DNA from: Kiritimatiellia bacterium
Lineage (GTDB): Bacteria > Verrucomicrobiota > Kiritimatiellia > RFP12 > UBA1067
Reading direction: 5' to 3'
Length of the DNA stretch: 64,000 nucleotides
Assembly (NCBI GenBank): GCA_017427485.1
Contig: JAFRSR010000154.1
Coordinates: forward strand, 18,426 to 82,425
Part shown: in pieces, positions 17,988-20,348 of the stretch
How the letters are laid out: each line of letters begins with the position of its first letter
How positions within the stretch are numbered: position 1 is the stretch's first letter
The notes under the pieces: model-generated
What the model was told of the DNA's origin: nothing
The model's database searches: none
Seen by the model: the letters and a program-made list of their open reading frames with translations, nothing else
Position numbers and translations under genes: made by a program

Positions 17988-20348
17988 ATGACGCGAAGAG
18001 ATTTTATCGGCACGGGCGCGATGTTCGGTGCGGCGGCGGCTGCGGGGCAAGCGGCGGTCGCGGGGCGACCGCCCTACCGGGCGGAAGATTATGCGGCACT
18101 GCGGAAGCAGCTGCGTGCGTTCCATCCGGACGAGTGCCATGACCGCTGCAAGGATCCGGCCTACGCCGTGGCGGAGAAGGCCATCCACGCCGACCTCGAC
18201 GCGTACGCCGCCGCGCATCCCGGCTACGACGCGCTCGACATGCGCCAGGCGTGCTACCTTTCGATGCGGAAGCACTTCGTGCCGTTCCTCTTTACCGAGT
18301 CGCCGTTCTACTTCGAGGCCGGCATCAACGGCGGCTGGATCATGTCCAGGGCGCCGGCGCGCGGCGTGAACCGCCTCTGCGGAAAGTTCTACAAGGAGCA
18401 GGCGCTCGTCCCCGACGAGGAGTTCCGCATCCTGCACGCGCGCAGCCGCGAGGCGCTCGCGCTCTGCTGCGGTCCGTTCTCCGACGACATGCACCACGTG
18501 CCGCCGCTTCGGACGATCCTCGCCAAGGGCTTCGGCGGCGTGCGCGCCGAGGTGGCCGCCGCGCTCGCGAAGTGCCCGAAGAACGACCCGCACGGGAGGA
18601 AGCAGCTGGAGACGGCGCTCGTGGGGCTCGACACCATCCACGAAATCCAGCTCAAGTTTGCCGCCAAGGCGGAGTCGATGCTCGCCGCCGGCGGTCTCGA
18701 CGAAGCCGCGCGCCGCCGCATGGCGCGCATCGCGGACTGCGCGAAGCGGTGTCCGTGGGAACCGCCCAAGACCTTCTTCGAGGGGCTGAACACGATCTGG
18801 TTCGTCCGCGAAATCCTCAGCTACGTGGACGGACTCTGCATCTTCTCGCTCGGACGGCCGGACGCGATGCTCTACGATTTCTACAAGGCCGACCTCGCGA
18901 CGGGGCGCCTGACCGTGGAGGAGGCGCGCGACCTCGTGGCGCGCTGGCTCGTCCATTCCGACGCCCACATGGACACGACGAGGAAGATCGACTCCTACTC
19001 CGACCAGGAAGCGGAGATGCCGATGTCCCTCGGCGGCTGCGACAAGGACGGGAAGCCCGTCTGGAACGAACTGACCGAGATGTTCCTCGACGCGCACCTC
19101 GGCTGCGACTGCGTGTTCCCCAAGCTCCACTGCCGCGTGGGCTCAAACTACCCGGAGCCGTACCTGCGCAAGATCGGCGAGCTGCTCGTCAAGGGCCACG
19201 CCGTGTTCACGCTCCTCAACGACGACCGCTACGTGAAGCAGTACATGGACGAGGGGTTCTCGGCCGAGGACGCGCGGTCGTTCATCGGCGTCGGGTGCTG
19301 GAACGGCTACATCGACTCGGTGATGGACGTGGAGGGCGCGAACTACACGTCCGTGATCCGCATCCTGGAGCTGACGATCCACAAGAACCCGAAGCTTGAA
19401 AAGGAGCTGCGGCTCAAGCTTGATCCGATCGACGGCGCGCAGACGTTCGAGGAGGTGGAGGAAACCGTCTTCCGCAACTACATGCGCTTCCTGCGCGATC
19501 TGCTTGCCACCTACACGCGCTACGGCGGCGTGAACGCGAAAGTGTTCCCGCATCCCGTCTATTCCGTATGTCTGCGCGGCGGCATCGAATCGCGGCGCGA
19601 CACCACGGAAGGGGGCGTCGCCTCGCGTCCGCGCATTATGACGCTCGGCTTCATCGGCAACGCGGTGGACTCGCTCTGCGCGATACGCCAGCTCTGCTTC
19701 GTCGATAAGACCTGCACGCTCGCGGAGCTGCTGGACGCGGTGCGGTCGAACTGGCAGGGTCCGCGCGGAGAGGAGCTGCGCCTGCGCGCGCTCGCGGCGC
19801 CGTACTGGGGTGACGGCGGTAAGGTCGCGACCGGCATGATGTCGCGCTGGATGAAGCGCATCCGCGCGGAGATCGACGGATTCCGCAACGACCAGGGCGG
19901 GCCGTACCGCCTTGCCGTCTACGCCTACCGCGAGTTCATGTACTGGGGGATGAAGACGAAGGCTACGCCTGACGGGCGGCATGACGGCGACCGGCTCGCG
20001 CAGGGATTCTCGCCGAGCGAATACCGCTGCAAGGAGGGCGTGACCGCCGTGATGAACGCGATCGGCGAATTGCCGCACGAGGCTCTCTACGCCTCGAACG
20101 CGAACCTCACCTTCGACCGGTCCGCCATGAACGAGGCGCTGCTGGCGGCGATCCTGCGCGTGTTCGCGAAGAAGGGGTCGCACATGATGCAGCCGAACTG
20201 CAACTCTGTGGAGGAGCTTCTCGACGCGCAGGCGCATCCCGAACGCCACCAGGACCTCATCGTGCGCGTGTGCGGGTTCTCGGCGCGGTTCGTCTCGCTT
20301 TCCAAGCGCTGGCAGGATGAGGTGATCGCGCGGCACCGGCTGCGATAG
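17988..20348 (+). CDS. glycyl radical enzyme family (PFL2-type) protein with Tat-type signal peptide
   Basis: 786 aa. C-terminal glycyl-radical motif HQDLIVRVCGFSARFVSLSKRWQDEVIARH. PFL2-like blocks SLGRPDAMLYDFY..GRLTVEEARDLV and MSLGGCDKDG. Cys loop reads FIGVGCWNG. N-terminus is MTRRDFIGTGAMFGAAAAAGQAAVAG. Confidence 0.85.
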   Translation: MTRRDFIGTGAMFGAAAAAGQAAVAGRPPYRAEDYAALRKQLRAFHPDECHDRCKDPAYAVAEKAIHADLDAYAAAHPGYDALDMRQACYLSMRKHFVPFLFTESPFYFEAGINGGWIMSRAPARGVNRLCGKFYKEQALVPDEEFRILHARSREALALCCGPFSDDMHHVPPLRTILAKGFGGVRAEVAAALAKCPKNDPHGRKQLETALVGLDTIHEIQLKFAAKAESMLAAGGLDEAARRRMARIADCAKRCPWEPPKTFFEGLNTIWFVREILSYVDGLCIFSLGRPDAMLYDFYKADLATGRLTVEEARDLVARWLVHSDAHMDTTRKIDSYSDQEAEMPMSLGGCDKDGKPVWNELTEMFLDAHLGCDCVFPKLHCRVGSNYPEPYLRKIGELLVKGHAVFTLLNDDRYVKQYMDEGFSAEDARSFIGVGCWNGYIDSVMDVEGANYTSVIRILELTIHKNPKLEKELRLKLDPIDGAQTFEEVEETVFRNYMRFLRDLLATYTRYGGVNAKVFPHPVYSVCLRGGIESRRDTTEGGVASRPRIMTLGFIGNAVDSLCAIRQLCFVDKTCTLAELLDAVRSNWQGPRGEELRLRALAAPYWGDGGKVATGMMSRWMKRIRAEIDGFRNDQGGPYRLAVYAYREFMYWGMKTKATPDGRHDGDRLAQGFSPSEYRCKEGVTAVMNAIGELPHEALYASNANLTFDRSAMNEALLAAILRVFAKKGSHMMQPNCNSVEELLDAQAHPERHQDLIVRVCGFSARFVSLSKRWQDEVIARHRLR
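18051..18078 (-). repeat. intragenic REP-like element, copy E3 (reverse orientation)
   Basis: GCGGCGGTCGCGGGGCGACCGCCCTACC. Stem GCGGTCG/CGACCGC. Encodes AAVAGRPPY at the end of the Tat signal of the GRE gene. Confidence 0.7.

Follow-up and report, generated by a model that had tools for sequence, protein, structure and literature searches.

Textbooks describe glycyl radical enzymes (GREs) and the radical-SAM enzymes that activate them as oxygen-labile systems of the cytoplasm, and to our knowledge all characterised members of both groups are cytoplasmic. In the GREs CutC, GDH and HypD, a Glu two residues past the catalytic Cys acts as the general base. Some GREs are targeted to microcompartments by encapsulation peptides; these are short amphipathic helices, and the corresponding GRM loci carry BMC shell genes. 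Export after cofactor assembly is represented by DMSO reductase DmsAB and [NiFe] hydrogenase-2 HybOC, which are Tat-exported cofactor enzymes or hitchhiker complexes. In anaerobic glycan degraders, the radical-SAM enzyme anSME modifies sulfatases that are bound for the periplasm; it acts in the cytoplasm, on the unfolded chain, and leaves formylglycine there as a stable covalent change. We know of no case in which a protein has been exported with a glycyl radical on it, nor of any described Tat substrate that bears a protein radical or is an Fe-S/SAM activase. The full-text literature that we searched holds no report of an exported GRE or activase. Here we describe a GRE gene with a predicted Tat signal that lies among genes for glycan-degrading enzymes in a 64-kb stretch of DNA, which was analysed as a whole and is referred to as the window (Table 1).

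The reading frame encodes a GRE homologue, as the original prediction had proposed. Its 786-residue translation matches the Pfam domains PFL-like (PF02901, 1e-76) and Gly_radical (PF01228, 7e-19), and scores far under every NCBIfam equivalog cutoff (TIGR01774, 277 bits with a cutoff of 678; CutC, 227 with 1050; HypD, 218 with 1100; PFL, 50 with 994). The AF2 model (pLDDT 86, pTM 0.88) has its best Foldseek matches, at TM ~0.8, in PflD, propanediol dehydratase, CutC and glycerol dehydratase. The glycyl-radical fingerprint (RVxG[FYW]) is present at the C-terminus, where G763 (RVCGFS) aligns with the radical Gly of CutC (RVAGYSA), and C437 aligns with the catalytic Cys in the GCVE loop of CutC. 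Across an alignment of 121 family sequences, G763, C437 and W438 are each found in all 121, C762, directly before the radical Gly, in 120, and the whole RVCGFSARF block is nearly invariant. Position 439, which is Cys+2, is Asn in 97 sequences and Asp in 24. The window GRE has Asn at this position and thus does not carry the hallmark of the GCVE-type 1,2-eliminases (CutC, GDH, PDH, HypD, IslA), so that its chemistry may differ from theirs. The GVGCWNG loop had been noted as atypical; the sequence is as described, and the atypicality is a family trait. A GCW loop is also found in the wider family, including cytoplasmic, activase-linked members from Clostridia and Lentisphaeria, and is followed there by D, G, A, N, E or T. 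C762 is also found in these cytoplasmic members. Thus, neither the loop nor C762 is a periplasmic adaptation, and we rejected the loop as a mark of lost function since it is uninformative on the loss of radical chemistry. Within the reading that we favour below, the window GRE would be a catalytically competent member of an uncharacterised, carbohydrate-associated subfamily with the signature [RK]VCGFSA[RK]F and GCW.

Table 1. Position of the GRE gene, its predicted functional elements and its neighbours in the window.
Feature	Position	Strand	Description or basis
Glycyl radical enzyme (GRE) gene	17988..20348	+	786 aa; RVCGFSARF / GCW subfamily of PFL2-type GREs
GGAG, Shine-Dalgarno-like	17977..17980	+	Read off the sequence; 7 nt ahead of the GRE start codon
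Predicted Tat signal peptide, residues 1-26, MTRRDFIGTGAMFGAAAAAGQAAVAG	17988..18065	+	TIGR01409 score, pLDDT, signal-less relatives
Cys loop GVGCWNG, residues 434-440	19287..19307	+	C437, predicted thiyl-radical Cys
Glycyl radical loop LIVRVCGFSARFVSLS, residues 757-772	20256..20303	+	G763, radical site; C762, family-specific Cys
GH2 beta-galactosidase with signal-like N-terminus	14693..17935	+	Pfam GH2 domains; upstream of the GRE
Signal-bearing HZS_alpha-domain protein	20362..23658	+	Pfam HZS_alpha 1e-29; downstream of the GRE

At its N-terminus the window GRE reads T-R-R-D-F-I-G and then GTGAMFGAAAAAGQAAVAG, which gives a Tat motif of the [ST]-R-R-x-F-[LI] type, an h-region of weak hydrophobicity and a site resembling AxA. 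This segment passes the curated TIGR01409 TAT_signal_seq model (21.3 bits, cutoff 16.7) and lies just below the gathering score of Pfam TAT_signal (19.3 bits against 22.7). Residues 1-26 have a pLDDT below 50, the fold begins near residue 30, and signal-less relatives begin at about query residue 33. The description of the N-terminus as a textbook Tat signal is therefore sustained, with the Pfam score just under gathering. The window encodes a second Tat-like protein, a metallophosphatase (373-1863, minus strand) with an SRREF signal (N-terminus ...SRREFILQGAAAWAAFLSGRAFA). A microcompartment targeting peptide, which had been raised as another identity for the N-terminus of the GRE, was rejected. 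There are no BMC or EutN domains in the window or in the annotated loci of relatives, and the N-termini of the family are not amphipathic encapsulation helices but show a positively charged n-region, a hydrophobic h-region and either an AxA site or a lipobox.

The family set comprises 118 full-length homologues with 61-92% identity from gut and rumen Kiritimatiellae. An N-terminal export signal of the Tat, Sec or lipoprotein type is found in 103 of the 118, whereas among 121 more distant GRE representatives only 2 have one (Fisher p = 7e-48). When 120 cluster representatives were classified by a second heuristic, ~54 were Sec-like, 13 had a lipobox, 20 were RR, 23 were RK and roughly 6 had no signal. 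The Sec, lipobox and Tat types swap at the same position among orthologues. Since extracytoplasmic targeting is the only property that these three interchangeable types have in common, the exchange supports export. As to whether orthologues keep both the RR signal and the radical Gly, the Gly is kept throughout, and RR is one of several types, alongside Sec, lipobox and RK. Homologues from Clostridia and Lentisphaeria have no extension and start where the mature domain starts, at query residue ~33, and signal-less paralogues also occur within the Kiritimatiellae (L004, L023, L024, L028, L030, L031). The predicted signal of the GRE is thus conserved across the clade far beyond chance. We suggest that, by predicted export, this subfamily has left the cytoplasm in the Kiritimatiellae of gut and rumen as well as in related lineages, where some MAGs are labelled Opitutales or Verrucomicrobia. 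The family is abundant in animal-gut metagenomes, where it forms hundreds of clusters.

The surroundings of the gene point to glycans. The gaps of 52 nt after the GH2 beta-galactosidase gene and 13 nt before the HZS_alpha gene, both as first reported, are correct, and the order GH2-GRE also occurs on four metagenome contigs. The HZS_alpha protein has two CXXCH haem-binding motifs (CIGCH, 22843-22857; CVSCH, 23104-23118), and its homologues adjoin the GRE in six loci (L007, L008, L017, L029, L033, L036); this dihaem protein may be a functional partner of the GRE. With its genes for GH2, GH28/GH127, SGNH esterase, GH39-like, GH20, GH16, GH92 and GH43 proteins, the window forms a CAZyme island. 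Elsewhere in the family, one protein (P0063, locus L038) is a GH16-GRE fusion with a Sec signal, another (P0124) has a GH2_N sugar-binding insert, and a homologue from Clostridia has UxuA, CE15, CE2 and a sugar ABC transporter as neighbours.

We favour, with a little more confidence than an even chance would give, a real radical-competent GRE that has a Tat signal, has been relocated to the periplasm among secreted glycosidases, and is activated and then exported. Directly supported are the identity and fold of the GRE, the invariant Gly and Cys, the pass of the curated Tat model, the signals throughout the clade, the activase linkage in relatives and the glycan context. From these we infer the export itself, the place and time of activation, the chemistry and the substrate. 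The GRE would fold in the cytoplasm, and a radical-SAM activase encoded elsewhere in the genome would put the radical on Gly763; since the 64-kb window holds no activase, activation of this copy is assumed. The folded protein would be exported by Tat and its signal cut near residue 26. In the anoxic periplasm it would act beside the neighbouring secreted glycosidases, with the Gly763 radical generating a thiyl radical on Cys437 that abstracts hydrogen from a sugar-derived substrate. By analogy with the nearest structural relatives, the bond cleavage that follows would be beyond the reach of hydrolases and is probably a C-O cleavage of the 1,2-elimination type. The original prediction had offered, as one option, a Tat-exported and pre-activated enzyme acting on glycan-derived substrates. 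The signals, the invariant Gly and Cys, the adjacent activases and the carbohydrate-module fusions and insertions support the part that concerns a putative exported radical enzyme, whereas pre-activation is only one possible route. Many homologues have Sec or lipoprotein signals, and since the Sec channel cannot pass a folded protein with a pre-formed radical, an order of activation and then export cannot hold for the family in general.

The activases bear on this directly. No CX3CX2C motif is present in any plausible gene of the window, and phmmer found no activase homologue among its ORFs of at least 100 aa. The statement that no activase is visible is correct for the window; it does not hold as a wider lack, since relatives encode one directly downstream of the GRE. 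A radical-SAM activase lies immediately 3' of orthologues in at least 15 loci, including one (L003) whose GRE is 88% identical to that of the window. A DGPGIRT/CX3CX2C activase is directly downstream in L001, L002, L003, L008, L010, L015, L016, L019, L022, L027, L033, L038, L039 and others, and in at least 13 loci an intact activase directly follows a signal-bearing GRE. There is also a large clade of activases with an N-terminal Tat-like extension of their own, found in 117 of 120 cluster representatives. The extension lies ahead of the normal activase start and follows the pattern M..T-R-[RK]-x-F-[ILV]..AFAV.P...A.GR..KTPLMLD. These activases retain CX3CX2C, GGE and one auxiliary-cluster motif. 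In L003, L015 and L016 their genes immediately follow that of a family GRE, and in L038 that of the GH16-GRE fusion with the Sec signal.

Such activases are the main argument for a different order of events, in which the GRE is exported by Tat or Sec without a radical and a Tat-exported Fe-S activase, which may already carry SAM and an electron, generates the radical in the periplasm. For the window GRE we regard this order as unlikely, though it is the strongest of the alternatives. It is favoured by the Sec or lipobox signals of ~67 of the 120 family members, which would imply unfolded export; together with the Tat-like activase clade, these many signals point to an activation step that follows export for some members of the family at least. 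The Tat character of the activase extensions is less clear than their conservation. About half of them are RK and not RR, and against Pfam TAT_signal they score 13-23 bits, one being above the gathering score and the others at 13-18. TIGR01409 matched none of three signal-bearing activase N-termini (RK and RR), nor the signal-less activase of L001, and it also missed an obvious SRREF control. We know of no periplasmic source of SAM or low-potential electrons, and none is recognisable beside the Tat-like activases in the annotated loci, the flanks of L003, L015, L016 and L038 having been screened by clustering only. The signal of the window GRE itself is cleanly RR, and no activase gene adjoins that of the GRE. 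GREs of the RR type are mostly found beside signal-less activases (eight loci), and this pairing is expected if activation comes before Tat export. A further point against periplasmic activation is L082, where a Tat-like activase is paired with a signal-less GRE of another family; four neighbouring genes in this locus have no Pfam match. We considered a strict rule by which RR GREs would always go with cytoplasmic activases, and Tat-like activases with non-RR GREs. Most loci conform to it, but L016 combines an RR GRE with a Tat-like activase and L010 an RK GRE with a signal-less one, and because of these two exceptions we do not claim it. The second GRE family that occurs beside Tat-like activases (L085 type) has ambiguous N-termini, of which many contain short hydrophobic stretches and some have clear Sec signals.

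A normal cytoplasmic GRE, or one associated with the inner face of the membrane, whose N-terminal peptide does not work in export but is a tether that stays uncleaved, a tag for assembly or targeting, or an evolutionary relic, is improbable. Such an enzyme would agree with the location of every characterised GRE and activase, with the signal-less activases adjoining RR-bearing GREs and with the signal-less paralogues in the same phylum. However, the swapping of three signal types at one position in orthologues is hard to explain except by export, and the GH16 fusion places a GRE domain behind a secreted module with a Sec signal. The signal-peptide anatomy and the absence of shell genes from the annotated loci also speak against a targeting tag of the microcompartment kind. 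The case for export is made stronger by the combination of interchangeable signal types, invariant catalytic residues and the Tat-like signals of the activases themselves.

We give very little weight to an exported protein that has lost radical chemistry, in which the GRE barrel is reused for glycan binding or as a hydrolase or lyase and the Gly and Cys are structural. This corresponds to the second option of the original prediction, a GRE fold in a non-radical role. The window without an activase and the Asn in place of the Cys+2 Glu would suit it, and in an oxidising periplasm C762 could conceivably be linked to the Cys loop by a disulfide. Yet the radical Gly, the thiyl Cys and their surrounding fingerprints are invariant in 121 sequences, intact activases directly follow the genes of signal-bearing relatives, and members that are cytoplasmic and activase-linked also have C762 and the GCW loop, so this option is disfavoured. 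Least credible of all is an annotation artefact, in which the true start lies downstream and no signal exists: although there is an internal ATG at codon 12 and some database homologues, P0012 and P0089 among them, have their called start within the signal, the ATG at 17988 is preceded 6 codons 5' by an in-frame TAG (17967-17969), which makes an earlier start impossible and together with the GGAG fixes the start there, M12 is Ala in L036 and L035, the TRRDFIG codons differ from those of L036 only by synonymous changes, and a signal of the same length is kept in more than 100 homologues.

For the family as a whole, we tentatively raise the possibility that gut and rumen Kiritimatiellae run periplasmic glycyl-radical chemistry, with GREs that leave the cytoplasm by the Tat, Sec or lipoprotein route and a dedicated, Tat-exported activase clade that installs the radical outside the cytoplasm. 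The activase might then be a pre-loaded single-shot reagent, or redox proteins of the periplasm might feed it, the recurrent dihaem neighbour being an example. If true, this would be the first extracytoplasmic radical-SAM/GRE system, and it would provide these anaerobes with a radical, non-hydrolytic cleavage of glycan linkages. A whole clade with export signals would do away with the assumption that protein radicals and radical-SAM enzymes work only inside the cytoplasm. Several questions become testable: whether a protein radical can pass through Tat, how SAM and low-potential electrons could reach the periplasm, and whether radical glycan-cleaving enzymes outside the CAZy hydrolase/lyase paradigm take part in the degradation of rumen and gut fibre or host glycans. 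Since the family is abundant in animal-gut metagenomes, the answer bears on carbohydrate turnover in the herbivore gut and on enzyme discovery.

Compared with known systems, the window GRE is closest to the PFL2-type eliminases (the choline TMA-lyase CutC, the B12-independent glycerol and 1,2-propanediol dehydratases, the hydroxyproline dehydratase HypD, and PflD/YbiW). It shares with them the two-domain architecture and ten-stranded barrel (TM ~0.8), the radical Gly in an RVxG[FY]S loop and the thiyl Cys in a central loop, and its relatives likewise have a dedicated radical-SAM activase. PflD and YbiW, which are 1,5-anhydrohexitol-6-phosphate dehydratases according to their PDB entry titles, illustrate that GREs are able to act on sugar derivatives. 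The window GRE differs from these enzymes in having only about 21-28% identity to them and an N-terminal export signal, and its family has Asn or Asp at Cys+2 instead of the catalytic Glu, and an extra Cys before the radical Gly. Like the microcompartment GREs of GRM loci, it has an N-terminal extension that would direct the enzyme to a compartment, but the extensions of its family are classical Tat, Sec or lipoprotein signals in annotated loci without shell genes. The relation of a GRE to its activase resembles that of sulfatases to anSME, in that a radical-SAM enzyme would act on a protein bound for the periplasm. Unlike formylglycine, however, a glycyl radical is a reactive species that depends on the folded barrel to shield it and is destroyed by oxygen. 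The nearest parallel for the predicted export is provided by DmsAB and HybOC, where a twin-arginine signal is also carried by a protein that folds and gains a labile feature in the cytoplasm before export. The cargo of the GRE system would differ from theirs in being a protein radical or an Fe-S/SAM activase and not a metal cofactor. Hitchhiking of the HybOC/DmsAB type, in which a signal-less partner rides with a signal-bearing one, might account for the varied ways in which signals are distributed between GREs and activases in this family.

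The open reading frame predicted to encode a glycyl radical enzyme (GRE) is indeed such a gene: GC3 is 0.91, codon-position GC marks it as coding, and its Pfam domains are PFL-like (1e-76) and Gly_radical (7e-19). Because an in-frame TAG lies six codons 5' of ATG 17988 and a GGAG stands 7 nt before it, the annotated start is the first possible one. M12, the sole alternative start, is Ala in two relatives. The N-terminus, MTRRDFIGTGAMFGAAAAAGQAAVAG, clears the NCBI curated twin-arginine model TIGR01409 (21.3 bits, cutoff 16.7) and scores 19.3 bits with Pfam TAT_signal, slightly under the gathering score of 22.7. 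In the AlphaFold2 model (pLDDT 86.4, pTM 0.88), residues 1-26 have pLDDT <50 and are separate from the fold, which starts near residue 30. The differences from an 80% identical relative (locus L036) in the TRRDFIG codons are synonymous. The original prediction of a Tat signal stood, since the peptide passes TIGR01409, lies outside the predicted fold and has counterparts across the family; export itself is predicted. Where the mature domain begins, CHDRC occupies residues 50-54. This DECH..C motif is kept in many members, signal-less ones included, with DWGQG or DRFQ in others, and could serve to bind a metal or to form a disulfide.

A homologue search of 5.8 billion proteins (E <1e-10) gave 294 hits, and nearly all of the best 120 (61-92% identity; those named are Kiritimatiellae) have a signal-like N-terminal peptide. 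By a simple rule of hydrophobicity and charge, applied to full-length sequences, 103 of 118 family members are signal-like versus 2 of 121 distant GRE cluster representatives (Fisher p = 7e-48; 3/122 if protein P0121, itself a member of this family, is counted as distant). About 54 of the family signals are Sec-like, 13 have a lipobox, 20 are RR and 23 RK. Among 79 GRE loci from a scan of GTDB species genomes, the extension occurs only in a clade composed of Kiritimatiellae and of MAGs that carry the label Opitutales or Verrucomicrobia. Clostridia (33-37% identity) and Lentisphaeria/Victivallales members (41-45%) start at query residue ~33 (M.Y..LR.EL), without it. Within Kiritimatiellae the signal is truly absent from a few paralogues (L004, L023, L024, L028, L030, L031). 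One contig (L035) holds two GRE copies, each broken into two overlapping frames, owing either to frameshifts in pseudogenes or to misassembly. Among orthologues, Tat, Sec and lipoprotein signals substitute for one another at one position, and all that they have in common is that they direct proteins out of the cytoplasm. This interchange is the strongest argument for a functional peptide.

As originally noted, the window has no activase: the CX3CX2C motif is absent from all its plausible genes, and none of its ORFs of ≥100 aa is similar to a GRE activase. In L001, L002 and many genome loci, a protein with DGPGIRT and CX3CX2C lies immediately 3' of the GRE. In eight loci (L001, L002, L008, L019, L022, L027, L033, L039), the GRE has an RR signal and its activase has none. 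In L003, whose GRE is 88% identical to that of the window, and in L015, L016 and L038/L041, the activase itself bears a Tat-like extension, for example MELLDRRVFIAGAASFAAVPLLGA..., upstream of the usual start LMLDVKRMAVHDGPG. With the L015 activase as query, 120 cluster representatives were obtained at ≥71% identity, 117 of them with the extension; the N-terminal pattern of this clade (P0271-P0390), which also has members in L082 and L085-L087, is T-R-[RK]-x-F-[ILV]...AFAV.P...A.GR..KTPLMLD. These activases retain the radical-SAM cysteines, the GGE motif and one auxiliary-cluster motif. In L082 and L085-L087 they adjoin two other GRE families, amid GH106, GH39 and phosphatases. Both families are divergent, with RVAGWNIRWND and RVCGWNVRWNDL (P0391-P0510); the former has short hydrophobic N-termini, and clear Sec signals occur in some of its members. 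The GRE system seems to depend on an activase, and some of it, at the least, seems designed for periplasmic use.

The window is a CAZyme island. A signal-bearing GH2, the GRE and a signal-bearing HZS_alpha/dihaem protein lie in a row, with gaps of 52 and 13 nt as originally given, and this order is repeated in four animal-gut metagenome contigs with an identical GRE. By eye, the N-terminal region of the dihaem protein is discoidin-like; a propeller region and a middle HZS_alpha domain are also present. Homologues of the protein adjoin the GRE in six further loci (L007, L008, L017, L029, L033, L036), and it could act as a redox partner in the periplasm. The island further contains a GH28+GH127 fusion, an SGNH esterase, GH39-like, Y_phosphatase3, GH20, GH16, GH92 and GH43 genes, metallophosphatases (one with an SRREF Tat signal), an MFS transporter and regulators. 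Since the listed GTG of the fusion creates an 86-nt overlap with the preceding gene, translation probably begins farther 3'. Dispersed among the CAZyme genes are several AAA-ATPase/DUF4143-type genes and a DUF3990 and HTH pair; ATPase genes like these are found again in related loci (cluster 9). Metallophosphatases and Y_phosphatase3 recur in GRE/activase loci, including L082 and L085, which hints at phosphorylated glycan substrates. One Clostridia homologue neighbours UxuA, a CE15 glucuronyl esterase, a CE2 esterase, GFO/IDH/MocA and an ABC transporter for sugars. Protein P0063 is a natural fusion of Sec signal, GH16 and GRE, followed after 1 nt by a Tat-like activase; P0124 is a signal-less GRE with a GH2_N sugar-binding insert near its N-terminus and an adjacent activase. 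Because of these neighbours, the fusion and the insert, we link the subfamily to carbohydrate use, with cytoplasmic (Firmicutes) and exported (Kiritimatiellae) forms.

Coordinates of features in the window and in loci of relatives
Locus	Position	Strand	Feature
Window	373-1863	-	Metallophosphatase, clear twin-arginine signal SRREFILQGAAAWAAFLSGRAFA
Window	17988-20348	+	GRE, 786 aa
Window	18135-18149		CHDRC of GRE
Window	20362-23658	+	HZS_alpha/dihaem protein, 1098 aa
Window	22843-22857; 23104-23118		CXXCH motifs of dihaem protein
Window	23573-26719	+	Large fusion, GH28/pectate-lyase-like beta-helix and GH127 (beta-L-arabinofuranosidase)
Window	29596-30882; 61904-63079		Metallophosphatase/Y_phosphatase3 genes
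Window	34503-35453		Separate GH16 gene
Window	37310-38818; 47721-49151	-	AAA-ATPase/DUF4143-type and DUF3990/HTH genes
Window	42014-43420; 50622-51954	+	AAA-ATPase/DUF4143-type and DUF3990/HTH genes
L035	2233-5095; 10802-13130		Split GRE copies
L038	5922-9551		P0063, 1038 aa
L050	1342-4086		P0124, 909 aa
L082	14379-16688		Divergent GRE, Kiritimatiellae glycosidase and phosphatase cluster
L085	7719-10004		Divergent GRE, Kiritimatiellae glycosidase and phosphatase cluster

For the RR-type GRE of the window we favour a proposed route in which the enzyme would fold in the cytoplasm, be activated there by an activase encoded elsewhere, and be exported folded by Tat. In the anoxic periplasm, the Gly763 radical would then generate a Cys437 thiyl that abstracts hydrogen from a glycan-derived substrate. 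The eight loci with an RR GRE and a signal-less activase are consistent with this order. The chief competing route would have a Tat-exported activase install the radical once the GRE is outside the cytoplasm. For the Sec and lipobox GREs, and for the GH16-GRE fusion followed by a Tat-like activase, this route is nearly required, though it leaves the source of SAM and of the low-potential electron unexplained. Pairings are also mixed: a Tat-like activase accompanies an RR GRE in L016 and, in L082, a GRE of another family that lacks a signal, and the RK GRE of L010 has a signal-less activase. Therefore, co-export of a GRE-activase complex by hitchhiking is conceivable too. The original alternative, a GRE fold in a non-radical role, is unlikely, since the catalytic Gly and Cys are invariant in 121 aligned sequences and intact activases adjoin the GREs of relatives.

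In that MAFFT alignment G763, C437 and W438 are invariant, and the block [RK]-V-C-G-F-S-A-R-F is nearly so. By phmmer, C437 of GVGCWNG aligns with the catalytic Cys of GCVE in the choline TMA-lyase CutC, and G763 of RVCGFSA with the radical Gly of RVAGYSA. C762, preceding the radical Gly, and an acid at Cys+10 (D447 here, E in outgroups) are conserved family-wide, and D443 among PVC members. The residue at Cys+2 is N in 97 and D in 24 sequences of the Kiritimatiellae clade, and D, G, A, N, E or T in cytoplasmic, activase-linked Clostridia and Lentisphaeria members. The loop had been called atypical; it does lack the GCVE Glu, but this is a family trait, as those cytoplasmic members likewise have no fixed Glu. 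That Glu does not belong to the characters of the subfamily. We rejected the loop and C762 as signs of decay, both being subfamily-wide signatures that include cytoplasmic, activase-linked members.

Full-text literature searches gave no account of an exported GRE or of a GRE activase that bears a signal. New in the system is that a GRE (in relatives also its radical-SAM activase) carries export signals and is set among secreted glycosidases; it would surprise specialists and is open to direct test. As a protein, the window GRE represents a new subfamily of a known enzyme type. NCBIfam places it in the PFL2/glycerol-dehydratase group, yet far under every curated cutoff (TIGR01774, 277 bits against 678; CutC, 227 against 1050). 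Its model resembles the crystal structures of PflD, propanediol dehydratase, CutC and glycerol dehydratase at TM ~0.8, although identity is only ~21%. Whereas the GCVE eliminases have Glu at Cys+2, this subfamily does without it, and its chemistry need not be theirs.
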